From an uncultured Bacteroidales bacterium (GTDB taxonomy: Bacteria; Bacteroidota; Bacteroidia; Bacteroidales; UBA932): DNA of 64,000 nt. Both the position numbers and the translations under genes were made by a program. The notes under the pieces are model-generated. The model was not told the DNA's origin and did no database searches. It saw only the letters and a program-made list of their open reading frames with translations. Positions 9,075 through 53,318 of this stretch are shown here, piece after piece (position 1 is the first letter of the stretch; every line of letters starts with the position of its first letter). Where the stretch lies: the NCBI GenBank assembly GCA_934725575.1, contig CAKVCK010000001.1, positions 218,808-282,807 of the forward strand, in the 5' to 3' direction.

Positions 9075-9085
9075 CATCGTTGTGA

Positions 9086-9124: not shown

Positions 9125-9138
9125 TAAAACCAGACTTT

Positions 9139-13963: not shown

Positions 13964-14133
13964 CCGTAAAATCAACCCCCAGCCCCTTCGGGACAGCCCC
14001 GGTGGGGCACTGGGGAGCGGTCTCCCCAGACCCCTTGCGTCGCTACGCGCTGCGCGCGCTTTTCATCCAACCCCCAGTCCCTTCGGGACAGCCCCGGTGG
14101 GGCACTGGGGAGCGGTCTCCCCAGACCCCTTGC
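13964..14133. repeat. Two direct copies of a 75-bp GC-rich structured element, about 95 bp apart
   Basis: Copy 1 at 13964-14038 and copy 2 at 14059-14133, differing at one position (agCccc vs agTccc). Each contains internal hairpins (ggggag-cggt-ctcccc; ccccag...ctgggg; ccc-ttcg-ggg) and is much more GC-rich than its flanks. Confidence 0.7.
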
Positions 14134-14165
14134 GTCGCTACGCTCCGATTAACACGCTAGTTACC

Positions 14166-14990: not shown

Positions 14991-15094
14991 AATGACATTA
15001 ATTTTGAACAAAAATAGACAAAAATTGAATATCTTTGCGATTCGGAAGAAGTTTTGAACATTGCTCAAGACCTCCATCGGAAAAATCAATCGTT

Positions 15095-15781: not shown

Positions 15782-17016
15782 ACAACGTTTTCCTCTTCAG
15801 GCTGAGAAGGCTGTGCGCTTTTTTGATTGGTGTGGTGTTCCTGCTCGCGGGAATATTCAAACTGCTTGATCCGGTAGGCGCGGGCCTTGTGATGGAAGGG
15901 TACTTGAGATTCCTCCATCTTGCATTCCTGCTGCCAGCGGCGAAGGCATTCGCCGTGGTTTTCGCACTTGCGGAGGCCATCCTCGGAGCGGCGATGATCA
16001 GTGGGGTCTGGAGAAAGCAGGTGGCGATCATCACCACTGCGATGATTGTCTTTTTCACCGTGCTGACGCTGTTTCTGGCCATATTCAATCCGGTAAGCTT
16101 GACTGACTGCGGCTGCTTCGGAGAGGTGATCCACCTGACCAACTTCCAGACGTTCCTTAAGAATCTGGTTCTGCTGGCATTGGCGATGACAGCGTTCCTG
16201 CCGTTCAAGAATTTCGGGAAGAACCGGAAGCGGAAATATGTCTCTTTCGGCATCGTGTCGGCCTCGATCCTTCTTTTTGCTGTCTATTCATTGACATCTA
16301 TCCCGATGGTGGACTACACCGCCTTCACTCCTGGCAGCGAATTGCTGGCGTCTGTTAGCAATGATGACGAGGAGGATGAAGCCTCCGGCAACTACAAATC
16401 CACGATCATCTACGAGAAGAACGGCCAGGAAGGAGCCTTCGACCTCGATCATCTTCCGGATTCAACTTGGACATACGTCCGCACGGAGACAATCCTGATC
16501 CACGGAGCGGACATCGAGGACAACAAGCCGGCGCTCTCGTTCACAGACTCATCAGGCAATTACCAAGACGAAAGGGCCACCTACGGCAATGTGCTTGCGG
16601 TTTCGGTCTATGACCCGGCCAAGACCAACGGATCTTTCTGGACAAGGATAGCCGATGCCCTTGACGGGGCGAAAGCCGCCGGGTTCACTCCCCTGCTGCT
16701 GATTTCCTCTACGAGGGAGCAGTTTGACAATATGTCCGTGATTGTACCGGATGTGCATTCCCGGCTGGCCGGATCGACATATTTCGCCGACAAGAAAGAG
16801 CTCGTCACCCTCAACCGCTCGAACGGTGGCGCGACTTGGTTCAACGATGGCCAGCTGATCCGGAAATATTCACACGGCCGCATCCCGTCGGACGACACTC
16901 TGCTGGAGATGACCGGTGATGATCCGACCGAGGAGATGCTGCGCTCCAGCACAAAGAGCCGCCTCCGCTTCCAAGGGTTCGCACTATACGTATTCGCGCT
17001 CCTGCTGATACTGTAA
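15778..17016 (+). CDS. MauE/DoxX-like integral membrane protein with a ~240-aa C-terminal extracytoplasmic domain
   Basis: Four TM helices with a CGCFG motif (LTDCGCFGEV) typical of MauE/DoxX-type proteins, then a soluble domain and a final hydrophobic segment. Family assignment approximate. Confidence 0.55.
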   Translation: MNNVFLFRLRRLCAFLIGVVFLLAGIFKLLDPVGAGLVMEGYLRFLHLAFLLPAAKAFAVVFALAEAILGAAMISGVWRKQVAIITTAMIVFFTVLTLFLAIFNPVSLTDCGCFGEVIHLTNFQTFLKNLVLLALAMTAFLPFKNFGKNRKRKYVSFGIVSASILLFAVYSLTSIPMVDYTAFTPGSELLASVSNDDEEDEASGNYKSTIIYEKNGQEGAFDLDHLPDSTWTYVRTETILIHGADIEDNKPALSFTDSSGNYQDERATYGNVLAVSVYDPAKTNGSFWTRIADALDGAKAAGFTPLLLISSTREQFDNMSVIVPDVHSRLAGSTYFADKKELVTLNRSNGGATWFNDGQLIRKYSHGRIPSDDTLLEMTGDDPTEEMLRSSTKSRLRFQGFALYVFALLLIL

Positions 17017-17250: not shown

Positions 17251-17290
17251 TGAAAAATCCCCGAGACCGTTTGAATTGGCCTCGGGGATT
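17251..17290 (-). terminator. Rho-independent terminator downstream of the small RGG-tail ORF
   Basis: On the minus strand, gaatccccgag(g)cc ... gg(t)ctcggggatt hairpin followed by UUUUUC. Confidence 0.55.
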
Positions 17291-17332
17291 CATATTCAAT
17301 TGCCACCTCGTTTGATCGAGGTCGGATATTCA

Positions 17333-17728
17333 TTAAAAGAACTCCTCTGTGTTCTTGTCGAGGTTGTCGGAGTGGTCTTCGGTGTTGGCGTTGAAGTCGT
17401 TCTTCGGGCCGAAGTTCCTGTGGCCTCCGTTCCTGCGGTCGTCGCCACCTCTGCGGTCGAATCCGCCCCTGCGGTCATCGCCGCCGCGACGGTCGAAACC
17501 ACCTCTTCTGTCATCGCCACCTCTACGGTCAAAGCCACGACGATCGTCACCGCCCCTGCGGTCGAAGCCTCCTCTGCGGTCACGGTCTCCGCCACGGTCG
17601 TTGCCTCCGCGCCGTCCGAGGGGCCGGTCAATCACGGATCTCAGTCCGCTGCGGTTAAAAATGTAGAGGATGGAGAAAAGTCCCCCGAAAGGGTTGATGT
17701 TGTCAGATTTTAGTTGTATCTTCGCCAT
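17333..17728 (-). CDS. Small protein (~131 aa): short unique N-terminal region fused to an Arg/Gly/Asp-rich (RGG/DRR-repeat) disordered tail homologous to the PNPase C-terminal tail
   Basis: Start taken at MAKIQLKSDNINPF (an alternative start at 17794 gives 153 aa). The C-terminal ~85 aa match the pnp tail (...[31 protein letters not shown] identical). The last ~117 nt of CDS plus ~40 nt of 3' UTR are near-identical to 37060-37210. Confidence 0.5.
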   Translation of the reverse strand: MAKIQLKSDNINPFGGLFSILYIFNRSGLRSVIDRPLGRRGGNDRGGDRDRRGGFDRRGGDDRRGFDRRGGDDRRGGFDRRGGDDRRGGFDRRGGDDRRNGGHRNFGPKNDFNANTEDHSDNLDKNTEEFF

Positions 17729-37016: not shown

Positions 37017-37049
37017 AAAAGAGGATGACCGGAAAGGTCACCCTCTTTT
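37017..37049 (-). terminator. Putative rho-independent terminator downstream of pnp
   Basis: Imperfect 10-bp stem gagg(a)tgacc / ggtca(c)cctc with a ggaaa loop, flanked by A4 and T4 runs. Weak U-tract. Confidence 0.45.
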
Positions 37050-37091
37050 CATATTCAGTTGTCACCTCATTTGGTAGAGGCGGCATATTCA

Positions 37092-39515
37092 TTAAAAGAA
37101 TTCCTCTGTGTTCTTGTCGAGGTTGTCGGAGTGGTCTTCGGTGTTGGCGTTGAAGTCGTTCTTCGGGCCGAAGTTCCTGTGGCCGCCGTTTCTGCGGTCA
37201 TCGCCGTTCCTGCGGTCTCCACCACGGTCGTAGCCGCGGCGGTCATCGCCGTTTCTGCGGTCGAAGCCTCCGTTCCTGCGGTCACCGTTGCGACGGTCGT
37301 CTCCGCCATTCCTGCGGTCAAAGCCGTTCCTGCGGTCACCGCCACGGTCGTTGCCTCCGCGTGGGCGACGCTCTGGCTCAACATAGCCTTCCGGCTTAGG
37401 AGTGAGGGCGCGCATAGAGAGTCTCATCTTGCCTGTCTTGGCATCGATCTCAAGGAGCTTCACGTCAACCTCCTGGCCGACAGTAAGTACGTCCTCGACA
37501 TTATCGGTCTTGTTCCAAGCGATCTCGGACACGTGGAGAAGGCCTTCCTTGCCAGGGAGGATCTCGACGAAAGCACCGAACTCAAGGATTGAGACAACCT
37601 TTCCGTGGTAGGTCTGGCCGACCTCCGGAACAGCGCAGATGCTCTGGATCCAGTCGTAAGCCTTCTGCATAGCGGCGGCATCGTTTGTGGCGATGTCAAC
37701 GACTCCCTTGCCGTCGATCTCGTCGATGGAGATGACAGCTCCGGTCTCGGCCTGGATCTTCTGGATGGTCTCACCACCCTTGCCGATGACAGCGCCGATG
37801 AATTCCTTGTCGATCTCGAAGGACTTGATTCTCGGAACGAACGGCTTGTAGTCCTCACGAGGCTTGTCGAGGCACTTCATCATCTCGCCCATAATGTGCA
37901 TTCTGCCTTCGTGGGCCTGCTGGAGAGCCTTTGCGAGAACCTCGTAGGAAAGACCGTCAACCTTGATGTCCATCTGGGTGGCGGTGATACCATCCTTGGT
38001 ACCGGCAACCTTGAAGTCCATATCACCGAGGTGATCCTCGTCGCCGAGGATGTCGGTGAGGATGGCGTAGCGGCCATTAGGGTTCTTCTCGTCAGTGATA
38101 AGTCCCATAGCCACTCCGGCAACAGGCTTGCTGATCTGAACGCCGGCGTCCATAAGTGCGAGGCAGCCGCCGCAGATCGAAGCCTGTGATGACGAGCCGT
38201 TTGACTCAAGAATATCAGAGACAACGCGTACAGCGTAAGGGAACTCCGGAGCCTTTGGCATAACGGCTTTAAGAGCCCTGAATGCCAGGTTTCCGTGACC
38301 TACCTCACGACGGCCAACACCTCTCTGGGCCTTGGCCTCTCCGGTGGCGAACGGAGGGAAGTTATAGTGGAGGACAAACTGCTGGGTCTCCTGTACGAGA
38401 ACCTCGTCCATCTCCTTCATATCCATCTTTGTTCCGAGGGTGACGGAGGCAAGGGCCTGTGTCTCACCACGGGTGAATATAGCCGAGCCGTGAGCGCAAG
38501 GCAGACAGTCAACCTCGCACCAGATAGGACGTACCTGGGTGGTCTGACGGCCGTCAACGCGAAGACCCTCATCGAGGACAAGATTCCTCAAGGCCTCTCT
38601 CTGCTCGTGGCCGAAGTATCTGTTGATCATCATCTTCTTGGCATCCTGCTCCTCTTCAGTCAGACCAAGAGACTCGACGCACTCCTTCTTGATGGCCTCG
38701 AAACCGTCCTCTCTCTCGTGCTTCGGCCTCGCGGACTTGGCGAGAGCGTAGCACTTGTCGTAGGCGAAATCGTGGATCTTCTTCTTGAGATCCTCGTCCT
38801 CCTCATCGTGAGGATAGTCTCTCTTGACATCCTTGCCGAGTTCCTTGTTGAGCTCTTTCTGGATGCGGCAGTGCTTCTTGATCTCCTCGTGGGCGAACTT
38901 GATGGACTCAAGCATAACCTCCTCGGAAACCTCCTTCATCTCACCCTCGACCATCATAATGTTCTCCTCGGTGGCTGCGACCATAAGCTCAAGGTCGGCC
39001 TTCTCCATCTCGCTGAAGTTAGGGTTGATCTTGAACTCTCCGTCGATTCTTGCCACACGTACCTCAGAGATCGGTCCGAGGAATGGAATATCGCTGGCTG
39101 CCAGAGCCGCTGAAGCCGCGAGCCCTGCGAGAGCGTCCGGCTGGATGTCCTTCTCGGCTGAGATCAGCCAGATGTTGACGAACACAGCGAGGTGGAAATC
39201 CTCTGGGAACAAAGGTCTTAAAGCCCTGTCGACAAGGCGAGAGATAAGGATTTCGTAGTCAGAGGCCTTGCCCTCTCTCTTCATAAATCCGCCCGGGAAA
39301 CGTCCCGCTGAATAGAATTTTTCCTTGTAGTCCACCTGGAGTGGAAGGAAGTCTGTGTCTTCTGCCGCTTCTTTAGCGCAGGTCACTGTGGCCAGGAGCA
39401 TCGTGCCTCCCATCTTGACCACTGCCGAACCGTCTGCCTGCTTGGCAACTTTGCCGGTTTCGATCTCGATCACCCGACCGTCGGATAATTCGATCTTCTT
39501 TGTGATGATGTTCAT
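37092..39515 (-). CDS. pnp: Polyribonucleotide nucleotidyltransferase (PNPase) with a ~90-aa Arg/Gly/Asp-rich C-terminal extension
   Basis: Start at [15 protein letters not shown]. Two RNase PH domains, KH ([10 protein letters not shown]) and S1, then the tail ...[92 protein letters not shown]. Confidence 0.95.
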
Positions 39516-39625
39516 TTTACTGTTTTTACCGCGTGTCCTCAACAAAATATATCTGAAAACTTCAGCGTCTTTCTAAATCGTGAAACCGTCCGCGGCCTTA
39601 AGCGGTCAGCGGAGATTTCATTTTT

Positions 39626-39670
39626 AATAAAAAAGGGACGGCTGCGTCATAGAGCGCGGCCAATCCCTTT
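39626..39670 (-). terminator. Hairpin plus U-run between rpsO and pnp (partial terminator/attenuator, analogous to the E. coli rpsO-pnp arrangement)
   Basis: On the minus-strand RNA: aaaggga-uuggccgcg...cgcagccg-ucccuuuuuu. GC-rich stem with a small interior loop, then U6. Confidence 0.5.
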
Positions 39671-39688
39671 TCTGTTCCTATCGCGAAT

Positions 39689-39964
39689 TTATCGACGGAG
39701 ACCGAGCTCCTTGACGATCTTTCTGTATCTCTCGATGTCGATCTTCTGGAGGTAGTCCAAAAGCTGACGCCTCTTACCTACGAGTCGAAGAAGGGAACGA
39801 CGGGTGACAACATCCTTCTTGTTCTTCTTCACGTGCTCCGTGAGGTGATTGATACGGTAGGAAAATAAAGCAACTTGACTCTCTGGTGAGCCGGTGTCTG
39901 TATTAGACTTTCCGTACTTAGCGAAAATCTCTTGCTTTTTGTCGGCTTGTAAATACTCTGCCAT
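39689..39964 (-). CDS. rpsO: 30S ribosomal protein S15
   Basis: 91 aa. [20 protein letters not shown]... is a canonical S15 sequence. Upstream of pnp as in most bacteria. Confidence 0.95.
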
Positions 39965-40028
39965 TTTCGCAAAAAATTTTGTTGATGATTAATAACGTCT
40001 TCTTCCCCGCACCCTGCGGAAAAGCGTG

Positions 40029-40036
40029 CAAAGATA
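40029..40036 (-). promoter_or_regulatory. Candidate -7 box (TAtcTTTG on the minus strand) for rpsO
   Basis: Exact TAnnTTTG about 65 nt upstream of the rpsO ATG. No TTTG -33 element at canonical spacing. Confidence 0.35.
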
Positions 40037-40101
40037 GGCATAATTTTCAGATAATCAAAATATTTTCTGAATATTCATTAATATTCAAAATGAATCTGAG
40101 C

Positions 40102-40659
40102 TCAGTACAGCCGGTAGCCGCGCAGGGCCCGTTGTTTGGCGAGATGGTCGGGGCAGAGGGATTCGAGGAGGGCGTGGAACTGGGGTCCGTGGTTGGGATG
40201 GCGAAGGTGGCAGAGCTCGTGTAGGATGACATAGTCCCGCAGCTCGTCCGGTAGGCGCACGAGGTTGAGGTTAAGGTTGATGTTGCCTTTGCGCGAGCAG
40301 CTTCCCCAGTTCGAGGAGTTGTGCTTGATGCGGACGGAATTATATTCAAATGAATATTTTGCCGCGAGTTCCCGCAGACGCTTTGGAAGCACTTCTTTCG
40401 CGACTTTCCGCAGCGTCTCAATCTCTTCGGGAGTTGGAATATGCTCGGCTCCGATCCGCTCACGCTGCTGCTTCTGGACTTTCAGGACCCAATCTTTTTT
40501 CGCCAGGAAGAACTCCAGTCCGGCCTTGTACGGAACGAAATAAGGAATGGTAACGGTAACGCCCCTGCGGGGATTCACGCGAAGTGTCACCCTGCGGGAG
40601 CGTACATTTTTCTGGATTGTAACGGTACCGGTGTCCGGATCGTCAAAGATTTTCTCCAT
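40102..40659 (-). CDS. DUF45/YgjP-like (M48/SprT-like) zinc metallohydrolase
   Basis: HEXXH motif in ILHELCHLRHPNH with the typical YgjP layout. The start is ambiguous (40659, 40671 or 40677); every choice overlaps the 3' end of the upstream CPBP gene. Confidence 0.65.
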   Translation of the reverse strand: MEKIFDDPDTGTVTIQKNVRSRRVTLRVNPRRGVTVTIPYFVPYKAGLEFFLAKKDWVLKVQKQQRERIGAEHIPTPEEIETLRKVAKEVLPKRLRELAAKYSFEYNSVRIKHNSSNWGSCSRKGNINLNLNLVRLPDELRDYVILHELCHLRHPNHGPQFHALLESLCPDHLAKQRALRGYRLY

Positions 40660-41611
40660 TGTCGATGTCATCGGCACCCGGAATCACGTCACAGTTGCCC
40701 TGCGCTGAGGTCAGACTGATTCTTGACAAATATCTGACAGCCAGAAACAATACGGCGGCGCTTACTATGAATATGATCACATAGACCTCGGTTGGAATGA
40801 TGTCCATAAGACTGGCGTCGGCTCCTAAATCCTTGAACGCCGGAAGTTTGGAGGACAGTACTGAGACCGTGTTGTTGACGCAGTGCATCAGCATCGTGAG
40901 CTTCAGCGAGCCGGTCTTGTAATAGACATAGCCGAAGAAGCTTCCGAGGATGAACGCCGAGATTCCCTGCCAGAGGTTGCCGTGGATCGTGGCGAAGAAG
41001 ATCGCCGAGATGGCTATCGCAAGAGCGGGATTCATACCCCTCCTGCTGCCGTCCTCGCCCGGTTCGCCCTTTCTGGAATAGTTAAGAAGGCCTCTCAGTA
41101 CGATGCCTCTGCACATCCATTCCTCAAGCACGGGAGCGAACACGCACATACTCAGAAGACTCACCCATAGAGGTCCGTCGAGCAACTGCTCCATTGTCTT
41201 GAGAAGGGTCTCGTCCATATCCGGCATCAAGGCCATCAACGGCTCAAGCATCAGCGCCAGTGCGATCGTCCCGAAAGCCATCAATATGGCCGTAAGCGCT
41301 CCGCCTCGGGAACCGAAATGATTGCTGTCAAGCGCATAGCCCCTGTCGAATGTGGAGTTGCGCATACTCTTGAGCCTCACGAACATCAGGACAGGGATGA
41401 ACTGCACAGGATAGACGATCAGCATACTGTAGTACAGCGGTAATCCCGGCAGGAATATCATCAATCCGATGTTGATCAGGCTGCCGAGTATCATTCCGGC
41501 CAGGAACCAGCCCAGAACAGCGAAAACACCGGCCACGCCAGGAGTGTACCAGGCGCAGCCGGAGAAAAGGTCGTAGTTCTTCTCGACCTTGCGTGGTCTG
41601 AGAAAAGACAT
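40643..41611 (-). CDS. CPBP-family (CAAX protease / Abi) intramembrane metalloprotease
   Basis: Multiple TM helices. Motif 1 EEWMCRG (EExxxR), FxxxH (FFATIHG) and a C-terminal His motif (LMHCVNN). Its start overlaps the upstream gene's stop by 1 nt (TAATG). Confidence 0.8.
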   Translation of the reverse strand: MSFLRPRKVEKNYDLFSGCAWYTPGVAGVFAVLGWFLAGMILGSLINIGLMIFLPGLPLYYSMLIVYPVQFIPVLMFVRLKSMRNSTFDRGYALDSNHFGSRGGALTAILMAFGTIALALMLEPLMALMPDMDETLLKTMEQLLDGPLWVSLLSMCVFAPVLEEWMCRGIVLRGLLNYSRKGEPGEDGSRRGMNPALAIAISAIFFATIHGNLWQGISAFILGSFFGYVYYKTGSLKLTMLMHCVNNTVSVLSSKLPAFKDLGADASLMDIIPTEVYVIIFIVSAAVLFLAVRYLSRISLTSAQGNCDVIPGADDIDNGENL

Positions 41612-42549
41612 TACTTTTTCCAGAGAGGTGTAGGATAAACGCCCTTGTCAACGAGTTCCTGGAACTTGGCCACAACGCCCGGACGGTCCTCCTTGTAGGT
41701 CACACCGAACCAGTGTGAGTCGGTGGAGAGGACCTCGCACTTGTAGCCGTGATCCTTCATCATTATGTCAACGGCGTAAGGAATGTAGAATTCCTTCTTG
41801 AGTTCACCTATGTTCTGCTCCAGGAATGACGTGAACACCTCTTCGCTGAGCTGGAAGTAGTCAGGAGTGAAGCCCCACATATTCATAGAGCAAAGCGCCT
41901 TGCCGTCGAGTTCGACGTGGGTCTCGCCGTTGACGGAGTTGTCGCCATAGACCTTGCCGTCTGCCTCTTTGCCGATATTCAGGTGCTCGGCGATGCCGGT
42001 GAGGTGAAGGTTCTTGTCGTAGTAGCAGATTCCTCGGGAGACCTTGCCATATTCGGAAAGTGTGTTGTCAAGCTCGAAGCCGACGATGCTGCACGTTCCG
42101 GTGGTGCCTTCGTGCGCCCTCAGCCAGTCGCCGAGAATCTTGAAGGACTCCTTGCCGTAGTAGTCGTCACCGTTGATGACGGCGAACGGCTCATTGATGA
42201 CATCCTTGGCCATCAGTACTGCGTGGGCTGTTCCCCAAGGCTTCTGCCTCTCTGGGTTGAGAGTGAACTGAGACGGGATCTTGTCCAGCTCCTGGATCAC
42301 GAAATCGAACTCAAGAGGAGTGCCGTCAGGGCAGGTAATGCCGCTGTACTTCTCCTTCACGGTCTGCTCGAACTGCTCACGGAAATATTCACGCACGATG
42401 TAAACGACCTTGCCGAAACCGGCGTTGACCGCATCGTAGATTGAATAGTCGATGATGGTCTCGCCGTTAGGGCCGAGTCCGTCCATCTGTTTGAGTCCGC
42501 CGTAACGGCTGCCCATTCCGGCTGCAAGTACAAGAAGTGTAGGTTTCAT
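41611..42549 (-). CDS. Nucleotidyltransferase-family protein (sugar-1-phosphate nucleotidyltransferase-like N-terminal domain)
   Basis: N-terminal LLVLAAGMGSRYGGLKQ (NTP_transferase G-x-G-T/S-R motif), ~310 aa. Specific substrate not inferable from sequence. Confidence 0.7.
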   Translation of the reverse strand: MKPTLLVLAAGMGSRYGGLKQMDGLGPNGETIIDYSIYDAVNAGFGKVVYIVREYFREQFEQTVKEKYSGITCPDGTPLEFDFVIQELDKIPSQFTLNPERQKPWGTAHAVLMAKDVINEPFAVINGDDYYGKESFKILGDWLRAHEGTTGTCSIVGFELDNTLSEYGKVSRGICYYDKNLHLTGIAEHLNIGKEADGKVYGDNSVNGETHVELDGKALCSMNMWGFTPDYFQLSEEVFTSFLEQNIGELKKEFYIPYAVDIMMKDHGYKCEVLSTDSHWFGVTYKEDRPGVVAKFQELVDKGVYPTPLWKK

Positions 42550-42672
42550 TTTTTTTGAATATTAATGATTTCAAACCGATTTCGGAAAGTTCAAAGGAAA
42601 CTTGGACGAGGCGTTAAAATTTGTGGCAAGTTATCCATTTCATTTTCCTTAATTCTACAAAATTAACTATTT

Positions 42673-43023
42673 TTGTACAAATATTGTTCTAAAGCCGTGG
42701 GAAAGTTCAGGGACATCTGGAATTGGAAATTGGATGGCAAGAACGCCGAAAAGCGTTCCTTTGTCCGTTATGCCATCCTCGCGACAGCCTTTTTCGTCAT
42801 AATGGTAGGATTTGTCAACCAGAACAACATCGTCCGCTGGATCAAGGCCGGCTTCGAGATCCGCAATCAGGAGAGGCTGATAGAGCGGTACAGCGCCGAG
42901 ATCAAGGATATGGACAGCAAGATCCACGGCCTGACCCACAGCAAGGATTCCCTGGAGCAGTTCGCCCGCGAGAACTTTGGATTCGCCGAGCCGGGCGATG
43001 ACGTTTACATCATAGAAAGATAA
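42673..43023 (+). CDS. FtsB/DivIC-like septum formation initiator family protein
   Basis: Short basic N-terminus, one TM (FVRYAILATAFFVIMVGFV), coiled coil (ERLIERYSAEIKDMDSKIHGL). The annotated ATG overlaps a TAttTTTG -7 box at 42668-42675, so the true start may be a downstream non-ATG codon. Confidence 0.6.
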   Translation: MYKYCSKAVGKFRDIWNWKLDGKNAEKRSFVRYAILATAFFVIMVGFVNQNNIVRWIKAGFEIRNQERLIERYSAEIKDMDSKIHGLTHSKDSLEQFARENFGFAEPGDDVYIIER

Positions 43024-43034
43024 TTTTACTGAAT

Positions 43035-44396
43035 ATGGACTTTCATTCTCTTCTGGCAGTGTCTCCGATCGACGGTCGCTATGCTGCCAAAACAGCATCG
43101 TTGAGACAGTATTTCAGCGAGTTCGCCTTGATCCGCAACCGCGTCAGAGTCGAGGTGGAATATTTCATCACTCTTTGCGAGATTCCTCTGCCGCAGCTCG
43201 CCGACTTCGGCGAAGGCACCGGAATGAGCCGTGACGAACTGTTCACCCGCCTGCGCCAGCTTTACCAAGCGATGACTCCGGAGGATGCGCAGAAGGTGAA
43301 GGACATCGAGAAGATCACCAACCACGATGTCAAGGCCGTTGAATATTTCATCAAGGAGAATTTCAAGGCTCTTGGAATATCCCGTTGGCAGGAGTTCGTC
43401 CACTTTGGCCTGACCTCTCAGGACATCAACAACACATCCCAGCCGTTGATGCTCAAGGAAGCTCTTGAGAATGAATATATTCCCGCGCTGAAAGAGGTGA
43501 TCTCCATCCTGTCCGCCGATGTCGAGGCGTGGAAGGATGTTCCGATGCTCGCCAGGACACACGGCCAGCCGGCCACTCCGACACGTCTCGGGAAAGAGTT
43601 CCAGGTGTTTGTCTCAAGGCTTGAGGAACAGCTCCGCCAGTTCGGCCAGTTGACCTGGCCTGCCAAATTCGGTGGTGCGACCGGTAATATGAACGCCCAC
43701 AAGGTCGCATTCCCGGACATCGACTGGCCGGCGTTCGCCGACAGGTTCGTGGCCTCGCTTGGTCTCAAGAGGTCATTCCCGACCACTCAGATCGACCACT
43801 ATGACAACCTGGCCGCGATCTTCGACTGTCTGCGCAGAATCAACACCATCCTCATCGATCTGTGCAGGGACATCTGGACCTACATCTCGATGGAATATTT
43901 CCACCAGCAGGTCGCAAAGAATGAGGTCGGCTCTTCGGCAATGCCCCACAAGGTCAACCCGATAGACTTCGAGAACGCTGAAGGTAACCTTGGAATGGCA
44001 AACGCCGTGCTGACATTCCTTTCGATGAAGCTTCCGATCTCCAGGCTGCAGAGGGATCTGACCGACTCCACTGTGCAGCGTAACATCGGAGTTCCGGTGG
44101 CCCACGGAATGATCGCCCTCGCATCACTGAAGAAAGGGCTCGGCAAGCTGATTCTGAACCGTCCGGCCATCGACGCCGAGCTGCATCACAACTGGGCGGT
44201 GGTCGCCGAGGCCATCCAGACCATCCTCCGCCGCGAGAATTACCCGAATCCGTACGAGACCCTCAAGAATCTCACCCGCACCGGAGCCGCCATCGACGAG
44301 AAGACCATCGAGGACTTCATCAACACCCTCGATGTCGCCGACTCCGTCAAGGAAGAGCTCCGCGCCATCACCCCGTGGAACTACACCGGCTTCTGA
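43035..44396 (+). CDS. purB: Adenylosuccinate lyase
   Basis: 453 aa. Canonical PurB start (SPIDGRY) and fumarate-lyase signature (GSSAMPHKVNP). Confidence 0.95.
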   Translation: MDFHSLLAVSPIDGRYAAKTASLRQYFSEFALIRNRVRVEVEYFITLCEIPLPQLADFGEGTGMSRDELFTRLRQLYQAMTPEDAQKVKDIEKITNHDVKAVEYFIKENFKALGISRWQEFVHFGLTSQDINNTSQPLMLKEALENEYIPALKEVISILSADVEAWKDVPMLARTHGQPATPTRLGKEFQVFVSRLEEQLRQFGQLTWPAKFGGATGNMNAHKVAFPDIDWPAFADRFVASLGLKRSFPTTQIDHYDNLAAIFDCLRRINTILIDLCRDIWTYISMEYFHQQVAKNEVGSSAMPHKVNPIDFENAEGNLGMANAVLTFLSMKLPISRLQRDLTDSTVQRNIGVPVAHGMIALASLKKGLGKLILNRPAIDAELHHNWAVVAEAIQTILRRENYPNPYETLKNLTRTGAAIDEKTIEDFINTLDVADSVKEELRAITPWNYTGF

Positions 44397-44439
44397 TCGG
44401 TCACTTCGACAGGTTCAGTGACCAACGTAAGGCAATACC

Positions 44440-44724
44440 CTAATCGTACAGTTCATCCTTTCGCAGAATCCTGTTCAAAAGGTAGTTGCCGTACCCGTCA
44501 GGCATACTGTCTTCAAATATTCCGAAATTGCCGTAGAAATAATCGGTCTTCGGAAGCAAGAGACCGCTTTTCAGTGGCAATTCCAATGGGGAAATGGAAA
44601 AACCCTCCGCTAGCCAGGTTTGGCTGTACTCGAACGCACATTTATGATTGCCTGGAGTCATTGACAATGTCCCGACAAGCTTATTATGATAAAAAACATC
44701 AAGTGATTCAGGTAGTTTGATCAT
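44440..44724 (-). CDS. HipA N-terminal-domain-only protein (HipS-like), or a truncated hipA remnant
   Basis: 94 aa. MIKLPESLDVFYHNKLVGTLSM...FEYSQTWL...FSISPLELPL matches the HipA N-terminal subdomain pattern. It stops 44 nt before the end of purB, leaving no room for a kinase domain. It overlaps the upstream HTH gene by 4 nt. Confidence 0.6.
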   Translation of the reverse strand: MIKLPESLDVFYHNKLVGTLSMTPGNHKCAFEYSQTWLAEGFSISPLELPLKSGLLLPKTDYFYGNFGIFEDSMPDGYGNYLLNRILRKDELYD

Positions 44725-45038
44725 AATTTCCGTAATCCTCTTTTTCTGTTCATATTCTTTTTTATGGTTTCCATCTCCTCCATCGTGCTGTATTTTGATT
44801 CCATAAAAAGTTTGTCCAGTTCATCGGTATAGCCCAATGCCATAGCGATTTTGACAAAGGAAGCAAGAGAAATCCTGGAAGAAGTCTCAAAATGCGCGAT
44901 GGTTGATTTAGGAACACCAGTCAAAGCTTGCAAGGCCTCCCTCGTAATTCCTTTCTCAAGCCTTCTTTTCTTCAGCCTGTCAGCCAACGATCTTGTAACT
45001 TCATCCGGAGTCGTGAATATGAAATCAGGTTCAAACAT
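44721..45038 (-). CDS. XRE-family HTH DNA-binding protein (HipB-like antitoxin)
   Basis: 105 aa. HTH segment LRKKRLEKGITREALQALTGVPKSTIAHFE. Immediately upstream of, and translationally coupled to, the HipA-N gene. AT-rich locus. Confidence 0.65.
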   Translation of the reverse strand: MFEPDFIFTTPDEVTRSLADRLKKRRLEKGITREALQALTGVPKSTIAHFETSSRISLASFVKIAMALGYTDELDKLFMESKYSTMEEMETIKKNMNRKRGLRKL

Positions 45039-45226
45039 AAATACTAATATTATATCTATTATCTACCATATACAAAGATAATAAATATTATTTTAGCATT
45101 ATCCCATACAGATAAAAGATGATTCCAAAGTTTCCTATGTGGCTGCCGTGAAATGGTATGGGATTGAATATAAAAAAAGAGCTGACCTTGTGGGCCAGCA
45201 TCTTCTCTATAGTTTGATGTAGAACG

Positions 45227-46561
45227 CTATTTCATCGTCACGGATACGACATAATCCTCCGCCGGAAGGTCGGCAGGAAGAGTGATGAAGAGTTTCTCGC
45301 CGACTTTCTTAACCGGCAGGGTGGTTCCGTCAGAAAAGGCGGTCACGGTCTTCACCTTGGACTTCTTGGCAACTGGGATCTCAAGAACAGCTCCAGGATT
45401 CTGCAAGACGTGAATATAGAAGGTCTTGCCACCTGCCAGAGGAGCTGTTGTGACACCCCATTCCTGCTCGGCTACCGGGCCGGGGCCACAACCCTTGATG
45501 GACTCACCGTTGACCTTCATCCACTGACCGATCTCCTTCAGCAGAGCCAGAGCGGCATCCGGAAGGCGACCGTCAGCGCGAGGGCCGATGTTCAGCAAAA
45601 GGTTGGTGTTCATCGAGACGGCCTTGGCAAGGGTACCCACAAGTTGCGCCGCTGTCTTGTAGTCACGGTCGGAAACACTGTAGCCCCAGGTGTGGTTCAT
45701 CGTCTGGCACATCTCAAGCGGCAGTTTGTCGCTTACCATCTGTCCCTCGGAATAACCGGCTGTGTTCTGGCCTGGAAGATCTCTTTCGAACATCTGGAAA
45801 TCTTCACCCTCAATCGGTTGAATGTGGTGATTGTTACCGATGAGGCAGGCCGGATCCACTGAATGAATATATTCATAGAACTCAGGCATCTTCCAGTTGA
45901 AAGGGATTGAGTCACGCTTGTGGTCCCAATAGCCGTCAAACCAGAGGGCGCGGACAGGGGCGTACTGGGTCATCAACTCTTTCACCTGCTGCTTCATAAA
46001 GCCAAGATAGTGGTCATAGTCAGGATGATCGCCCTTGCGGCCGGTGTTGTGGCCGGACTCGCCGAGCGGGTAATCCTCTCTGATCCAGTCCAGAATCGAA
46101 TAATAGAACTGGAGGCTCAGACCTTCCTTATGGCAGGCATCTGCGAGATCCCGCATCACATCCTTTCCCCAAGGGGTAGCCTTGACGATGTTGTAGTCCG
46201 AAGCCTTGGTGTCGAACATAGAGAAACCATCGTGATGACGGGAAGTGATTGTCACATAGCCGGCACCTGCATCCTTGAAAGCCTTAACCCATTCCTCGGC
46301 GTTGTAGCCGGCGGGATAGAAAGCGGTCGCCGCGTGGGCATATTCATCCTTGTTCAGGCCTCCAAGCTGGAGGTACCACTCCCCTTGCGCGTATGACGCA
46401 TATATTCCCCAATGCAGGAATATTCCGAAGCGGTCGTTGACGAGTTGGCGGCGCGCCTCCAGATTCTCCGGAGTCGGCTGATAGTGGTTCTGTGAATATC
46501 CCGCCGAAGCGGTCACGAGTGAAAGGCAGATTGCCAGAAAGGTGGTTCTCAATGTCTTCAT
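45227..46561 (-). CDS. Alpha-L-fucosidase (GH29)
   Basis: 444 aa with a signal peptide. GH29 motifs (FGIFLHWGIYA, GAGYVTITSRHHDGFSMFDT, WFDGYW). Confidence 0.9.
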   Translation of the reverse strand: MKTLRTTFLAICLSLVTASAGYSQNHYQPTPENLEARRQLVNDRFGIFLHWGIYASYAQGEWYLQLGGLNKDEYAHAATAFYPAGYNAEEWVKAFKDAGAGYVTITSRHHDGFSMFDTKASDYNIVKATPWGKDVMRDLADACHKEGLSLQFYYSILDWIREDYPLGESGHNTGRKGDHPDYDHYLGFMKQQVKELMTQYAPVRALWFDGYWDHKRDSIPFNWKMPEFYEYIHSVDPACLIGNNHHIQPIEGEDFQMFERDLPGQNTAGYSEGQMVSDKLPLEMCQTMNHTWGYSVSDRDYKTAAQLVGTLAKAVSMNTNLLLNIGPRADGRLPDAALALLKEIGQWMKVNGESIKGCGPGPVAEQEWGVTTAPLAGGKTFYIHVLQNPGAVLEIPVAKKSKVKTVTAFSDGTTLPVKKVGEKLFITLPADLPAEDYVVSVTMK

Positions 46562-46590
46562 AATGAATATATTTGTAAATACAATCAGTT

Positions 46591-47781
46591 TTACTCCTCA
46601 GGATAAAGCGAGCCGGCGATGCCCATCTGGAGGCCGCGAAGCTCAGCGATGCCCCTCATCCGGCCGTAGCAGGAATATCCCGGGTTGGATTTCTTCTGAA
46701 GGTCATCGCACATCCTGTGGCCGTGGTCAGGACGGCAGAACACACGGAACTTGCGCTCCTGCATCACCTCAAGGAGGGTCTTCATCATTCCGTACATATC
46801 CACGTCACCGGCCAGGTGCGTGTCCTCGAAATAGTTGCCCTCGGCGTCACGCTTCGTGCTTCTGAAATGCACGAAATCAGTCCTGTCCCCAAACTCGCGC
46901 ATCATTCCGACAAGATCGTTGTCAGCCCTGATGCCGAACGAACCAGTGCAGAGGCAAAGGCCGTTGGACCAGTCAGGGACCGCGGCGATCAGTTTACGGA
47001 AATCATCCGCCGTTGAAAGGATCCTTGGAAGACCAAGAATCGGGAACGGTGGGTCATCCGGATGGATGACCATCCTCACTCCAACTTCGTCAGCCACTGG
47101 GCAGATCTGGCTCAGGAAGAAGATAAGATTGCTTCTAAGTTTCTCGGAATCAATTCCATCGTACCTTTCGAGCTCTTTTCTGAACTGGTCAAGGGTGAAA
47201 CTCTCCTCGCTGCCAGGAAGGCCGGCGATCATCGTTCGGGTGAGTTTGTGGATCTCCTCAGCGTCCATCTTCTCGAAACGTGCCTTTGCCTTGGCGATGT
47301 CCTCGGCTGAATATTCCTTCTCCGCTCCCGGTCTTTTCAGGATGAAAAGGTCGAACGCCAGCAGGGCCGCGCGCTCGAAGCGCAGACAGGTCGAGCCGTC
47401 AGGAAGCCTGTAGTCCAGATCGGTACGGGTCCAGTCAAGCACCGGCATGAAGTTGTAGGTCACGCACTTGATGCCGCACTCAGCGAGGTTGCGCAGAGTC
47501 TGCTTGTAGTTCTCGATATACTGGAGATAGTCCCCGGTCTGGGTCTTGATGTGCTCGTGCACAGGCACGCTTTCGACCACGCTCCAGATGAGTCCCCAGT
47601 CGGCGATCATCTTCTGGCGGGCCTTGATCTCCTTGACCGGCCAGACTTGACCGTTAGGAATATGATGGAGGGCGTGAACGATGTCAGTCACGCCTGTCTG
47701 ACGTATGTAGTCCAGAGAGATAGGATCGTTGGGGCCGTACCATCTCCAGCTTTCGCGCATTAAAAATAAATCTTTATTCAT
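46591..47781 (-). CDS. uxuA: Mannonate dehydratase
   Basis: 396 aa. UxuA signature N-terminus ([16 protein letters not shown]...) and xylose-isomerase-like TIM barrel. Confidence 0.9.
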
Positions 47782-47786
47782 ATTCC

Positions 47787-48614
47787 TTAGATCGAGAAAG
47801 CGTCAAAACCTCCGTCCACAACATTGATAGTTCCCGTCACGGCCTTGGAGGCGTCGGAAGCCAGCCAGTGGAGGGTTCCGAGAAGTTCCTCCGGCTCAAG
47901 GAAACGTCCGAACGGAGTGTGCGCCAGAATCTTGTGCGAGCGGTCGGTCAGACTGCCGTCAGGATTCGTAAGCAGGGAGCGGTTCTGGTTCGTGAGCAAG
48001 AATCCTGGTGCGATGGCGTTGACTCTGAAGCCCTCACCGAACTTTATGGCAAGTTCCCCGGCCAGATACTTTGTCCAGTTGGCCACAGCGGCCTTCGCGA
48101 CACCGTAACCGGCCACACGTGTGAGAGGCCTGAGTGAGGTCTCGCTGCAGAAATTGATGATCGAACCCTTCTTCTTCTCTACCATAGCCTTCGCGAAGAC
48201 CATAGTCGGAAGCACTGTACCGAACAAGTTAAGATCCACAACCTTGCGGACAGCCTCGACATCGAGGTCGAAGATTGTCTTCTCAGGAGGAACCGTGGCG
48301 GCGGCCATATTTCCACCAGCGGCGTTCAGAAGGATGTCAATCCCACCGAACCTCTCCACGATCTCCTTGCAGTTGGCCTCAAGGGTCTCCTTGTCAAGCA
48401 CATTTGTAGGAAGGAAGCAAGCCTCTCCGCCATCAGCCTTGATCTCGGCCACGATGGCCTCACCCTTCTCGGCGGCACGGTCAAGATCCAGAAGAGCGAC
48501 CTTCGCGCCCTGCGCCGCGAAATACTTAACGATGGTGGCGCCCAGAACCCCGCAGGCTCCGGTCATCACGACCACCTTACCTTTGATATCAAAAAGATTT
48601 TCCATAATATTCAA
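47787..48614 (-). CDS. uxuB: SDR-family oxidoreductase, probably D-mannonate oxidoreductase (Bacteroidetes-type UxuB)
   Basis: Rossmann TGACGVLG motif and YxxxK (YGVAKAA). Adjacent to uxuA. The uxuB call rests on context and family, not a specific signature. Confidence 0.7.
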
Positions 48615-48630
48615 TTATTTAAACATTTAA

Positions 48631-50496
48631 CTATTTAATAGGCATTGACTTGATTACCTTTGTATTTATTTCGTTCAGTTTCTTTTCATCCAGCTTGATG
48701 ACCTTGCGGTCGTAAGTCATAAGACCGTTGACCTCGCCCTCGACATCCGTCGTCTGGGTATAGACAGCGCCGCAGACTCCCTGCTTGACCAGAAGGATAA
48801 GGTGCTCGGCGAACTTTTCATACTCAGCAAGGACCTCATCTCCATTCTTGTACTGGACATATCCCCAGTTGCGGTCAGGCTGCCACAGATGTCCTTCCAG
48901 CGGAAGTCCGATGCCACCATATTCACCTACGACATTAGCCATCTTCGTCTCCCAAAGATACATTGCAGGATAAGGATAATGGTGGTTGTCCATAATGTCA
49001 CCGCAGTCAGGCTCCCAGTTTCCGCCAGAGGACATATTAATCAGTCTTGTAGGATCCAGGGCTCTTGTGAACTCGACAGCGGCCTTTGTGTCAAACTGGC
49101 TCCAGGCCTCGTTGAACGGCACCCACATCACGATGCAAGGGAATTTCTTCACCTGCGCGATGATCTCGGACCATTCCTTATAATAGTTGGCCTTGGCCTG
49201 AGGGGTGGCAGGGAAGTCTGTACCCTCATTGTAGTTATGAATCCCCCACTTGTTGAGGTTGTTGGAGCCGAAGCAAGGCATATCCTGCCAAACGAGCATT
49301 CCGAGCTGGTCGCAGTAGTAGAACCAGCGTGACGGCTCGACCTTGATGTGCTTGCGGATCATATTGAACCCGAAATCCTTGGTCTTCTGAATATCATATT
49401 TCAGAGCCTCATCGGTCGGTGCGGTGTAGAGTCCGTCAGGCCACCAGCCCTGATCAAGCGGGCCAAACTGGAACAACGGCTGGCCATTGAGTCCCATAAG
49501 TTTGGTGTTCTTGTTCTTCACATAGAGGGAAACCTCACGCATAGCGGTATAGCCATCGACAGAGTCAATGGTCTTGCCGCCACGGACAACTGAGACCTTA
49601 AGGCCGTACAGGTACGGAGAGTCCGGAGACCAAAGCTTGGCATCTTTCACAGGCAACGTCACAGTGCCGCCAGGAACGGTCATTCCCTGGGCGATAACCT
49701 TTGACGATGCGTTCTCCGTCGAATAGCCGATGCCTCCGTCAAGAAGCGCCACCTTCACGATGTCCCCTTCCTGAACGCCTTCAGTTGAGACAGTAACATC
49801 AAGCGTTCCTGCCTTAATGTCTGAGACAGCGTAATAGTCAGCGATATGAGCTTTTGCGACCGGCTCGATCCAGACGCTCTGCCATATTCCCGAAACAGCC
49901 GTGTACCATATTCCCTTAGGGTTCTTTACCTGCTTTCCTCGAGGTTGGAAATCATTGTCGGTAGCGTCAAGCACCCTGACAGCGAGTTTGTTCTCACCAT
50001 TCTTAATGTAAGGTGTAACATCAAACGAGAAGTGGGTGTAACCGCCAGTGTGTCTGCCGACCTGCACATCATTGACATACACATCAGCCTGCCAGTCAAC
50101 CGCCTCAAAGTTGAGCATCAGCCTCTTGCCTTTCCAGGCTGACGGAACCTTGAATGTTGTCTTATACCAAAGGGCATCCTCAGGGGTCAAGGTACGTCCC
50201 ACTCCGGAAAGCGAGGACTCCACGGCGAACGGCACAAGAATATTCCCGTCAAATGTTTCAGGCTGAGCGCTGTCTTTTGAGGTTATTGAATATTCCCACA
50301 ACCCATTGAGAGACTTCCACTCAGGGCGTACCATCTGAGGACGGGGATATTCCGGATGAGCGTTGGTCGGAGAAACCTCCTCAGCCCAAGGTGTGCGGAT
50401 GTGATCCCCGGCGGGGGCCCAAGACTGGGCGGCCATCGGAGCGGCGAATGCCATCACAGCCGCAAGAACAGAGTAAAATTGTGTTTTCATTGTCAT
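48631..50496 (-). CDS. Glycoside hydrolase family 2 (candidate beta-glucuronidase given the uxuAB context; beta-galactosidase or mannosidase not excluded)
   Basis: 621 aa with a signal peptide. GH2 sugar-binding, Ig and TIM domains. Candidate acid/base in WVPFNEAW and nucleophile in VVGEYGGIG. Confidence 0.8.
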   Translation of the reverse strand: MTMKTQFYSVLAAVMAFAAPMAAQSWAPAGDHIRTPWAEEVSPTNAHPEYPRPQMVRPEWKSLNGLWEYSITSKDSAQPETFDGNILVPFAVESSLSGVGRTLTPEDALWYKTTFKVPSAWKGKRLMLNFEAVDWQADVYVNDVQVGRHTGGYTHFSFDVTPYIKNGENKLAVRVLDATDNDFQPRGKQVKNPKGIWYTAVSGIWQSVWIEPVAKAHIADYYAVSDIKAGTLDVTVSTEGVQEGDIVKVALLDGGIGYSTENASSKVIAQGMTVPGGTVTLPVKDAKLWSPDSPYLYGLKVSVVRGGKTIDSVDGYTAMREVSLYVKNKNTKLMGLNGQPLFQFGPLDQGWWPDGLYTAPTDEALKYDIQKTKDFGFNMIRKHIKVEPSRWFYYCDQLGMLVWQDMPCFGSNNLNKWGIHNYNEGTDFPATPQAKANYYKEWSEIIAQVKKFPCIVMWVPFNEAWSQFDTKAAVEFTRALDPTRLINMSSGGNWEPDCGDIMDNHHYPYPAMYLWETKMANVVGEYGGIGLPLEGHLWQPDRNWGYVQYKNGDEVLAEYEKFAEHLILLVKQGVCGAVYTQTTDVEGEVNGLMTYDRKVIKLDEKKLNEINTKVIKSMPIK

Positions 50497-50509
50497 TATT
50501 TGTTTTGTG

Positions 50510-52069
50510 TCATTTAATCAGGTTACCTAAAATAGAGCGCGTAAGCTCTCTCGTGACCGTGCGGGTGACGGCGGACGTAGTGTTCTTAACAACCTTTGAC
50601 GTGCCGCTCCCCTTCTTGGTCTTCTTGCCCGTCACCTTGTTGGAGACAGCCGTCCCGACCGAAGCGGCCACAGACGCTGTCACCGCCGTGACAACAGCCT
50701 TGGCGAGCTTTCCGAACAGCCCGTTGCCGCCCTTACTTTGCCTGCTTTCGGCCTCCTTGGCCTCGGCGGCAGCCTTTTCCTCCTCCTGTTTCTGCGCAAG
50801 AAGCACCTCGAACGCGCTTTCACGGTCAACCGGAGTGTCATATTTCCCGAATATTCTGGAAGACTTTATAAGACGGTCCCTTTCGGATTCGTCGATCGCA
50901 CCGATCTGGCTCAAAGGGAAGAGAATCTTCGCCTTCTGAACCACACCAGGAGACCCGCCTGCCTCAAGGAAGGAGACGAGAGCCTCTCCTGTTCCAAGGT
51001 TCATAATGGTCTCCGAAGTGTCGAACGCAGGATTTGCCCTGAAAGTCTCGGCGGCCACCCGGACGGCCTTCTGATCCTTCGGCGTGAACGCCCTGAGAGC
51101 GTGCTGCACACGGTTTCCAAGCTGTCCGAGAATGCTTTCAGGAATGTCGGTCGGACTCTGAGTCACGAAATACACTCCGACTCCCTTGCTTCGTATGAGC
51201 CTTACCACCTGCTCGATCTTGTCAGTCAAAGCCTTTGGCGTGTCGTCAAAAAGCATATGCGCCTCATCGAAGAAGAACACCAGCTTCGGAAGATCCAGAT
51301 CGCCTACTTCAGGAAGCGTGGTGTAGAGCTCGGAAAGCAGCCAGAGCAGGAATGTTGAATACAGCTTCGGCTTAAGCATCAACTTGTCGGCAGCCAGCAC
51401 ATTCATCACACCCTTCCCACCCTCGCAGGCCAGAAGGTCTTGAATATCAAAGGCCGGCTCTCCGAAGAACAGATCCGCCCCCTCGCTCTCAAGGGCCAGG
51501 ATCGACCTCTGGATAGCTCCTACGGAAGCCGCAGCGATGTTGCCGTAGGTTGACGAATATTCAGAAGCGTGTTCAAGGGCGAAATTCAGCATTGAGCGCA
51601 AGTCCTTGATGTCGAGGATGAGCAGTCCTCTCTCATCGGCTATCCTGAACACGATGTTCAACACGCCCTCCTGCGTGTCGTTAAGCCCAAGGATACGGCT
51701 CAAAAGCTGTGGTCCCATCTGGGAGACGGTGCACCTGAGCGGATGTCCCTGCTGACCGAACACATCGTAGAAGCGTACCGGGCAGCTTTGGAACTGAGGA
51801 TTCTCGATTCCGAACTCGGCCATTCTCTTCTCGATGAAGCCGCTGAGTTTTCCTGGTTGGGATATTCCGGAAAGATCACCTTTCATATCCGCCATAAAGC
51901 AAGGCACACCGGCCTGGCAGAATGTCTCGGCCATAACCTGAAGTGTGACGGTCTTTCCCGTGCCGGTGGCACCGGCGATAAGCCCGTGCCTGTTCGCCAT
52001 CTTTCCCACTATGGATAGTGGCCCGTCAGCGCTATGGGCTATCCACAGCCCGTTTTTCGAGTCGTACAT
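50510..52069 (-). CDS. HerA-like / DUF853 (YjgR-like) P-loop ATPase with a Lys/Thr-rich C-terminal tail
   Basis: 519 aa. Walker A (GATGTGKT) and Walker B-like (LVFFFDEAH). Overall similarity to the E. coli YjgR family. Basic low-complexity C-terminal tail. Confidence 0.75.
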
Positions 52070-52080
52070 CGTTGTCAGTT

Positions 52081-52629
52081 TTATTGTTGTTCCACTTCTT
52101 TGCTGAAAAATGAGAAATGAACACGACCGTATCTCTTCTCTTTCATAAAATACGGGTGTCCAGTGAATGAGTGCTCGTCACCGTGCTCCAGGATGAAATA
52201 GCATCCCGGATGAAGGATGTCCGCGGAAAAAACCTTGTCTGGAATGGTCTCAAGGCCCTCCAGCGCATACGGAGGATCTGCGAAGACAATGTCGAACTTT
52301 TCGTGGCAGATCGTCAGGAAATCAAAGACATTGTCCCTGACCATCGTGACATTGTCCAGTCCCAGCCGCTTGGCCTCGGTCTTGATGAACGAGGCGTTCT
52401 CCCTTGCCATCTCGACCGTCCAGACCCTTGACGCCCCTCTGGAGGCGAACTCAAAGGCGACCGCACCAGTGCCACCGAAAAGATCCAGAACCTTAAGGTC
52501 CTCGAACTCATATTCATTGCCAAGCACATTGAAAAGGCCTTCGCGAGCAAAGTCCGTCGTAGGCCTGGCCTTGTAGCCGGCCGGTGGATTGATTGTCTTT
52601 CCGCGAAGCCGCCCTCCTATGATCCTCAT
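52081..52629 (-). CDS. rsmD: 16S rRNA (guanine966-N2)-methyltransferase RsmD
   Basis: 182 aa. MRIIGG.LRG start, SAM motif [17 protein letters not shown] motif. Confidence 0.85.
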
Positions 52630-53318
52630 AACCTTTCCACTGATTTGAAATAACGGTAAAGGGACATCATCTCCTCTTCCTTGAGCGGCGTGCGGAAATA
52701 CACGGACGAGACTTCCGGATTGAGCTGGAGCTTCCGAACGGCCATAAAGAGGAAATATTCCGCGGTGGTGAAATCAGCGGCGCGGAACACGTTGGCCAGA
52801 AGCAGGTTCCGGCCCTGGGATATTCCAAGATGAAGGTAACCGGCGGCATACGAGGCCACAATCCTGTTATATTCATCGACCTTTTGCAGATCCTTTAGGA
52901 TGAAGTACATCTCCGGAAGGATCCGCGCGGCCTTTCCCTCCTCGTCAAGCACAGCCTGCGAGATCGTGCGGGACAGCATCTCACCTATCGAAAGGGAATA
53001 CACCAGCTCCGCCGCATATTCCGGAAGACCGATATGGCCGACCTCGTCATCATTGCCAAGAGCAACCGTTTCGGACAAAGTCTCCCGCGCCTTGGCTTCA
53101 TCAAAGAAAGCGGTCGGCACCAACGCCACCTTCGGAGTCAACAGCGACACCTCCACCTTCGGGTATCTCCTCTGAAGCTCCGGAGCGGTGAATACGGTGT
53201 CAGCGGCACGCCAGCCGGACTCCATAGAAGAGCTACCATCCACCACCTTAAAAGAATATCCATTCAAGCAAACTTGAATGGATATTCCGGTTGTCATTTT
53301 CTGTGGATTCCAGTCCAT
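52626..53318 (-). CDS. Bacteroidetes conserved hypothetical protein (DUF3822-like), translationally coupled to rsmD
   Basis: 230 aa. 4-nt overlap with the rsmD start. Family assignment from memory and uncertain. Confidence 0.5.
   Translation of the reverse strand: MDWNPQKMTTGISIQVCLNGYSFKVVDGSSSMESGWRAADTVFTAPELQRRYPKVEVSLLTPKVALVPTAFFDEAKARETLSETVALGNDDEVGHIGLPEYAAELVYSLSIGEMLSRTISQAVLDEEGKAARILPEMYFILKDLQKVDEYNRIVASYAAGYLHLGISQGRNLLLANVFRAADFTTAEYFLFMAVRKLQLNPEVSSVYFRTPLKEEEMMSLYRYFKSVERL

Follow-up and report, generated by a model that had tools for sequence, protein, structure and literature searches.

Organization of the locus

The stretch of DNA analysed here (the window, 64,000 nucleotides from an uncultured Bacteroidales bacterium) carries two minus-strand ORFs between purB and an alpha-L-fucosidase gene. 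The features of this region, with their coordinates in the window, are listed below.

43035..44396, plus strand: purB, with Lyase_1 and ASL_C domains
44397..44439, no strand assigned: former hipA-purB spacer, containing a hairpin with a 7-bp stem (44399-44405 / 44417-44423)
44440..44724, minus strand: the 94-aa ORF (hipA stub)
44440..44462, minus strand: out-of-frame tail of the stub, comprising the last old hipA codons, the old stop and 3′ UTR
44459..44464, minus strand: deletion junction, at which blastn segments of the L098 contig (described below) abut and overlap
44463..44724, minus strand: undeleted 5′ portion of hipA (codons 1-87 and one further base), representing the start of N-subdomain 1
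44721..45038, minus strand: HTH gene (hipB-like), an ORF of 105 aa
45039..45226, minus strand: AT-rich hipB promoter and candidate operator region
45227..46561, minus strand: alpha-L-fucosidase gene, upstream of hipB

The ORF calls and the base composition bear out the original prediction of an overlapping gene pair in a low-GC patch between purB and the fucosidase gene: the two ORFs share a 4-base ATGA overlap (44721-44724), and the GC content is 0.36-0.40 over positions 44500-45250, compared with ~0.52-0.60 in the flanks. The purB gene is convergent and ends 43 bp from the stop codon of the stub.

The product of the first gene (105 aa) matches HTH_3 with an E-value of 1.4e-10, in agreement with its earlier identification as an XRE-type HTH protein, while its matches to the NCBIfam HipB and Y4mF antitoxin models are weak and far below the cut-offs. 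PADLOC likewise returned only generic HTH matches for this gene, and left the stub unmatched. The intact hipB is presumed to encode the antitoxin and autorepressor of a former hipBA operon. Upstream of it, a 25-nt imperfect inverted repeat (45040-45064 / 45076-45100, 84% complementary) flanks the sequence TATCTTTG (45073-45080, minus strand), a putative promoter element that resembles the -7 box of Bacteroides, for which the promoter consensus is TAnnTTTG. The ~60 bases directly 5′ of the hipB start align with the corresponding DNA of L015 and L016, the closest relatives described below.

The spacer with its hairpin is the old hipA 3′ UTR, as the identical sequence lies downstream of the intact hipA in L098. 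The hairpin at 44399-44423 is probably a terminator shared by the convergent genes; Rfam at gathering thresholds gave no match in the window. A hairpin of the form GGTCACT-N11-AGTGACC is kept beside the purB stop in all relatives (L096, L099, L015/L100, L097). The whole 25-nt element of the window and L098 is the reverse complement of the version in L096/L099/L015 (GGTCACTTCGACAGG[C/T]TC[G/A]G[T/C]GACC), a difference in orientation that amounts to a hairpin-sized flip of the loop.

The second gene had been described as encoding the ~95-aa N-terminal subdomain of HipA. The family assignment holds, with a match to Couple_hipA (PF13657) at E=6.4e-12, but the match spans only positions 1-72 of the 99 in the profile, compared with 1-98 in intact relatives, and a complete subdomain is absent from the window. 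Native HipA sequence ends at about residue 87-89, the subdomain reaching ~119 in intact relatives, so that the stub is missing ~30 residues at the end of N-subdomain 1 as well as the whole kinase core. Remnants of a kinase domain had been proposed for a search in the purB-proximal sequence. When ten full-length HipA proteins were compared with the 64-kb window by tblastn, a match was obtained at 44724..44458, all other matches had E>0.5, and no kinase-domain similarity was seen elsewhere in the 64 kb. The HipA_C kinase core, with its Gly-rich loop and catalytic motif, is thus missing both at the locus and across the window. The stub alone found no match among PDB sequences. An AlphaFold2 model of the intact allele, computed from a 30-sequence alignment, has pLDDT values below 50 at residues 38-82 and 103-127, and is therefore unusable for locating the truncation in the fold.

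Intact conspecific allele and deletion junction

When metagenome contigs were scanned for exact matches to the conserved purB 3′ end, six loci were obtained, including L098 (ERZ1026860 NODE_12), a metagenome contig of 138 kb. L098 is collinear with window positions 52798..39522 (~14 kb) at 96-99% nucleotide identity, including the adjacency of the fucosidase gene and hipB, and it carries hipB, an intact 365-aa hipA and the convergent purB at the same site. The full-length hipA for which related strains were to be inspected is therefore found between the same hipB and the same purB. Identities to the window, with those of the deletion-bearing loci L001-L008, are given below.

purB: L098 99.4%; L001-L008 98.1-100%
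Fucosidase gene: L098 96.8%; L001-L008 94.6-99.7%
hipB and promoter: L098 99.4%; L001-L008 98.2-100%

Because the values for L098 fall within the range of the deletion-bearing loci, we assign it to the same species as the window. The HTH gene of L001 appeared to be broken, being called as 40 + 37 aa; this is a gene-caller artefact, as the L001 DNA equals that of the window except for one base in the stub.

The HipB protein of L098 is 100% identical to that of the window, and residues 1-87 of the stub are identical to those of the intact 365/366-aa HipA of L098 and of two further intact alleles, P0255 and P0256. The L098 HipA translation reads ...NSGGCRPK... and ...DDHAKNFS..., and for another intact allele of the same species (P0121) the precomputed Pfam annotation gives Couple_hipA together with HipA_C.

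Compared with L098, the window lacks positions 8505-9333 of that contig, which correspond to 829 bp of hipA (codons ~88-363) and include the entire kinase core. With the breakpoint marked by a slash, the junction on the minus strand reads CTGC/GAAAGGATGA, with a short microhomology, GC, then GAAA. In L098, the 5′ side of the missing segment reads ...ATT CTG C/AG AAA TAC... and the 3′ side ...CCG GC/G AAA GGA TGA ACTGTACGATTAG, while the window reads ATT CTG CGA AAG GAT GAA CTG TAC GAT TAG across the junction. Since 829 = 3 × 276 + 1, the deletion shifts the frame, and the former stop TGA, which sits inside GGATGA, is read through out of frame. The tail residues are R88 K89 D E L Y D, followed by the new stop TAG, so that the stub ends in ...RKDELYD, and its final 5 codons are junction sequence past the old stop. 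An in-frame deletion that kept the native C-terminus was considered and rejected, given that the C-termini of the relatives are not DELYD and that 829 bp shifts the frame.

Full-length relatives, recurrent loss of hipA and allele frequencies

One genome per species was scanned for relatives of the 94-aa ORF, which yielded 80 loci. In 75 of these, the frame extending from the match runs for 362-392 aa and encodes a single-chain HipA; four of the other five carry lesions (truncations, an insertion, a nonsense codon), and L064 runs off the contig end. A split hipS/hipT layout was seen in none of the 80 related loci in these species-representative genomes, and the two-gene pair beside a separate kinase gene, envisaged in the original prediction as the sign of a functional tripartite variant, is accordingly not what the relatives have. 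The 94-aa query had also returned a set of proteins of only 63-165 aa, suggestive of a stand-alone HipA_N family, but these are contig-end fragments or lesions of the ~365-aa family.

The closest of the 80 loci are L015 (Bacteroidales bacterium UBA1628), with 94% amino acid identity over residues 1-89, and L016, with 90%. Both consist of a 105-aa HTH gene, an ATGA overlap and a 365-aa gene, followed by convergent purB; as in L098, hipB lies directly upstream of a full-length hipA and overlaps it. Analysis with hmmscan places Couple_hipA at residues 8-116 (profile positions 1-98 of 99) and HipA_C at residues 160-361 of these 365-aa proteins, which are 89% identical to the HipA of L098. In a PDB search they match E. 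coli HipA at 4e-14, and the catalytic motif DDHAKNFS is present in them. At the DNA level, the window is collinear with L015 and L016 across the promoter, hipB and hipA codons 1 to ~88, where the alignment ends abruptly. Descent of the window locus from a hipBA operon at this site is thus seen both in the 829-bp deletion relative to L098 and in the intact operon beside purB in L015 and L016. A hipBA pair 88% identical to this one (L017, CAVERO010000050.1, 1971-3077) lies on a contig labelled 'Candidatus Methanomethylophilaceae archaeon', which is almost certainly a bacterial contig mis-binned into an archaeal MAG.

The surroundings of the operon differ between these lineages. Directly upstream of hipB, L015 and L016 carry folP, tmk and a gene for a 409-aa membrane protein (2743-5630), and in the window these genes lie at 14169-17016 on the plus strand, in the opposite relative orientation and ~28 kb away. 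Their displacement points to an inversion or rearrangement, of which one breakpoint lies immediately 5′ of the hipB promoter (~45096-45226). The arrangement of the window, with the fucosidase gene adjoining hipB, is common to L098 and the L009 lineage. The window also contains two directly repeated 112-nt segments (17289-17400 and 37048-37159) that are 92% identical and ~20 kb apart, one copy lying ~270 bp downstream of the rearrangement breakpoint beside the 409-aa gene. Intergenic repeats of ~80-180 nt at unrelated positions, with 82-83% identity, are also seen between L009 (187-369) and the window (13972-14148), and such short repeats could be REP- or MITE-like sequences.

Independent lesions of hipA with hipB kept were found in the following seven loci.

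L018: hipB and HipA residues 2-130 remain
L057: HipA residues 7-103 remain
L013: HipA residues 2-146 remain, followed by an integrase gene
L035: 2.5-kb insertion in hipA after residue 87 (6262-8788)
L037: in-frame stop at hipA codon 60
L009 lineage: fucosidase-hipB context as in the window, with an AAA_14/DUF4143 gene inserted after hipB and hipA interrupted and truncated at ~residues 121-135
L097: hipB alone, beside purB

The insertion in L035, where residues 88-188 are gone, lies at about the same position as the deletion breakpoint of the window. In L009 (3579-4838, 5232-5492 and 5714-5788), decay at this site took another, more complex course: the AAA_14/DUF4143 ATPase gene stands between hipB and the remnant, a ~260-bp insert interrupts the remnant, and a 78-nt copy of the region upstream of hipB (window 45076-45151) occurs again downstream of the remnant. 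In L096 and L099, no hipBA lies between the neighbouring membrane-protein gene and purB, and the module is therefore accessory in this group.

A cluster look-up placed the exact junction ORF on ~95 contigs and a D76N variant on ~87, along with the rarer variants D76G+L83M, S73N, S45F+D76N, L56V+D76N, F11L, L16F, L92P and shorter forms. In the same look-up, intact 366-aa alleles occur on ~152, 128, 47, 14 and 13 contigs, so that the deletion allele is no more common than the intact toxin allele. All copies of the deletion share the DELYD tail, which shows that the deletion is real and of single origin, and the presence of both allele classes on many contigs indicates that they segregate in the species. 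[quoted passage not shown]

Residues 1-87 are unchanged in 13 of the 15 intact alleles among those listed, and the private substitutions of these 13 fall within residues 88-366. None of 30 full-length homologues varies at D76, S73 or S45, and the stub variants D76N/G, S73N and S45F alter precisely these residues. Such a pattern is in keeping with a relaxation of constraint on the stub once the deletion had occurred, and is supportive rather than decisive, as the comparison draws on the distinct protein sequences of a clustered database and not on an unbiased DNA sample. The dN/dS of the stub between species is 0.06 relative to L015, with 8 synonymous changes to 1 non-synonymous change in the window lineage. 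This low value was discarded as a sign of stub function: the same-species intact allele has identical first 87 residues, so that the constraint predates the deletion, which is younger than the divergence measured.

Interpretation of the locus and comparison with known systems

The deletion, its exact junction, the same-species intact allele and the lack of kinase sequence in the window are direct observations. From them we conclude, with high confidence, that the locus is a decayed hipBA module that lost its toxin gene through the 829-bp deletion and left an orphan antitoxin. The original prediction had offered a decayed hipBA or hipBST module without its toxin as one of two alternatives; the orphan antitoxin and the hipBA origin stand, given the intact L098 operon and the deletion relative to it, but hipBST ancestry does not. 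A single deletion destroyed the toxin gene of a hipBA type II operon by fusing hipA codon ~88 to the three codons at the end of hipA, and probably arose via illegitimate recombination at the short GC/GAAA microhomology. The promoter and candidate operator, the intact hipB-like gene and the translationally coupled 94-aa stub are what is left over. HipB is probably still produced and would repress its own promoter; the stub is probably translated through the coupling, and would be expected to be inert, unstable and drifting. Loss of the toxin may have been tolerated or even favoured, since, to our knowledge, toxin-first loss is the only viable route of TA decay.

It is conceivable, although unlikely, that the remnant has been selected as an anti-addiction or immunity module, in which the orphan HipB, with or without the stub, counters incoming mobile copies of hipBA. 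Such selection would account for the intactness of hipB across many independent decays (hipB is intact in 7/7 of the independently decayed loci examined), for the complete identity of HipB between the intact and the deleted allele, and for the conservation of the upstream inverted-repeat region. Retention of the antitoxin, however, is equally expected from the order of TA decay and from the recency of the deletion. As neither HipB nor stub residues 1-87 differ by any amino acid from their L098 counterparts, selection has had little time to become visible.

We consider it very improbable that the 94-aa product works as a HipS-like antitoxin or modulator, acting in trans on a HipA or HipT encoded elsewhere, the pair being a working module without a kinase of its own. 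HipS antitoxins are homologues of N-subdomain 1 of HipA whose genes immediately precede a separate hipT kinase gene (PMC8262856), and HipS neutralises the kinase through direct binding (PMC8262856, PMC10627512). The stub in most deletion alleles keeps its start codon, the ATGA coupling to hipB and an open frame, and the deletion allele is frequent, all of which would be in line with such a role. The C-terminus of the stub, however, was made by a frameshifting deletion, and its homology, confined to ~72% of the N-subdomain profile, extends no further than the counterpart of E. coli HipA residue ~78, whereas the subdomain aligns through ~106. In HipS of E. coli O127, the interface with HipT consists of three helices (residues 53-94), the fifth strand is made up of residues 95-102, and Trp65 is a required residue (PMC10627512); by position, the missing tail, equivalent to E. 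coli HipA ~79-106, is the last part of this 53-102 region. When used against the PDB, the N-domain profile finds E. coli HipA (residues 4-106) at E=7e-4 but, with E-values of up to 10 considered, none of the solved HipS chains, and the equivalent of Trp65 is not alignable. Split relatives and a kinase in the 64 kb are lacking, the second commonest stub allele carries D76N at an invariant residue, and S73N and S45F alter two others. The 94-aa ORF is therefore not of the HipS type: its end was made by deletion, it spans only part of the N-subdomain, its relatives are single-chain, no HipS chain is matched, and its variants change invariant residues. Neither the HipS-like framing of the gene nor the suggestion of a HipS acting in trans is supported. 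We give similarly little credence to the related idea that the N-terminal HipA fragment, translated together with HipB, has been kept because it inhibits paralogous or incoming HipA kinases in a dominant-negative or HipS-like manner. If true, one deletion would have turned a TA module into an immunity module, possibly offering a snapshot of the origin of HipS from hipA.

That the deletion is an assembly artefact of the window, a general possibility and nothing more, is already refuted by independent assemblies and contig counts, as 165 blocks of the assembly collection contain the exact 94-aa protein, the 8 places listed share the same context and come from several independent studies, and the DELYD-tail variants occur on many more contigs than the ~95 with the exact ORF.

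Under the decayed-hipBA reading, the appropriate annotation for the 94-aa ORF is hipA pseudogene fragment rather than HipS-like gene, and that for the HTH gene is orphan antitoxin of the HipB type. The finding matters little past annotation. Of modest interest is that intact and toxin-deleted alleles are both frequent in one human-gut Bacteroidales species; their coexistence, together with the recurrent loss of hipA, makes a clean natural example of toxin-first TA decay, and the two natural genotypes are a ready pair for testing the role of hipBA in gut Bacteroidales.

The likeness to the HipBST systems of E. coli O127:H6 and Legionella pneumophila (PMC6581861, PMC10627512, PMC9325769) is superficial, and consists of an HTH gene followed by a homologue of N-subdomain 1 of ~100 aa. 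Unlike in HipBST, there is no hipT directly downstream of the stub, where the purB stop is 43 bp away and tblastn finds no kinase; the short ORF is a deletion fragment that ends at the junction with 5 out-of-frame codons, rather than a separate hipS gene with a complete ~100-aa N-subdomain-1 fold; and the relatives are unsplit.

The locus can also be compared with HipBA of E. coli K-12 (PF13657 together with HipA_C, PF07804), whose family is named 'type II toxin-antitoxin system HipA family toxin' by NCBI. The order is the same, with an XRE HTH gene directly upstream of, co-oriented with and overlapping hipA, and the same-species intact allele encodes a single-chain HipA with the N-subdomain, the kinase core and the catalytic DxHxKN motif. 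The Bacteroidales proteins differ from E. coli HipA (440 aa) in being ~365 aa long, and the HTH protein of the window scores under the NCBIfam HipB/Y4mF cut-offs. In the window, moreover, the kinase core is deleted, so that no toxin can be made.

From degraded TA loci and orphan antitoxins, the locus differs in nothing of note: here too, an inactivated toxin gene accompanies an intact antitoxin gene and promoter, the allele segregates within the species, and independent toxin lesions are recurrent in relatives. The locus is a known kind of thing, a textbook case of TA decay in which the ancestral allele is still in the population.
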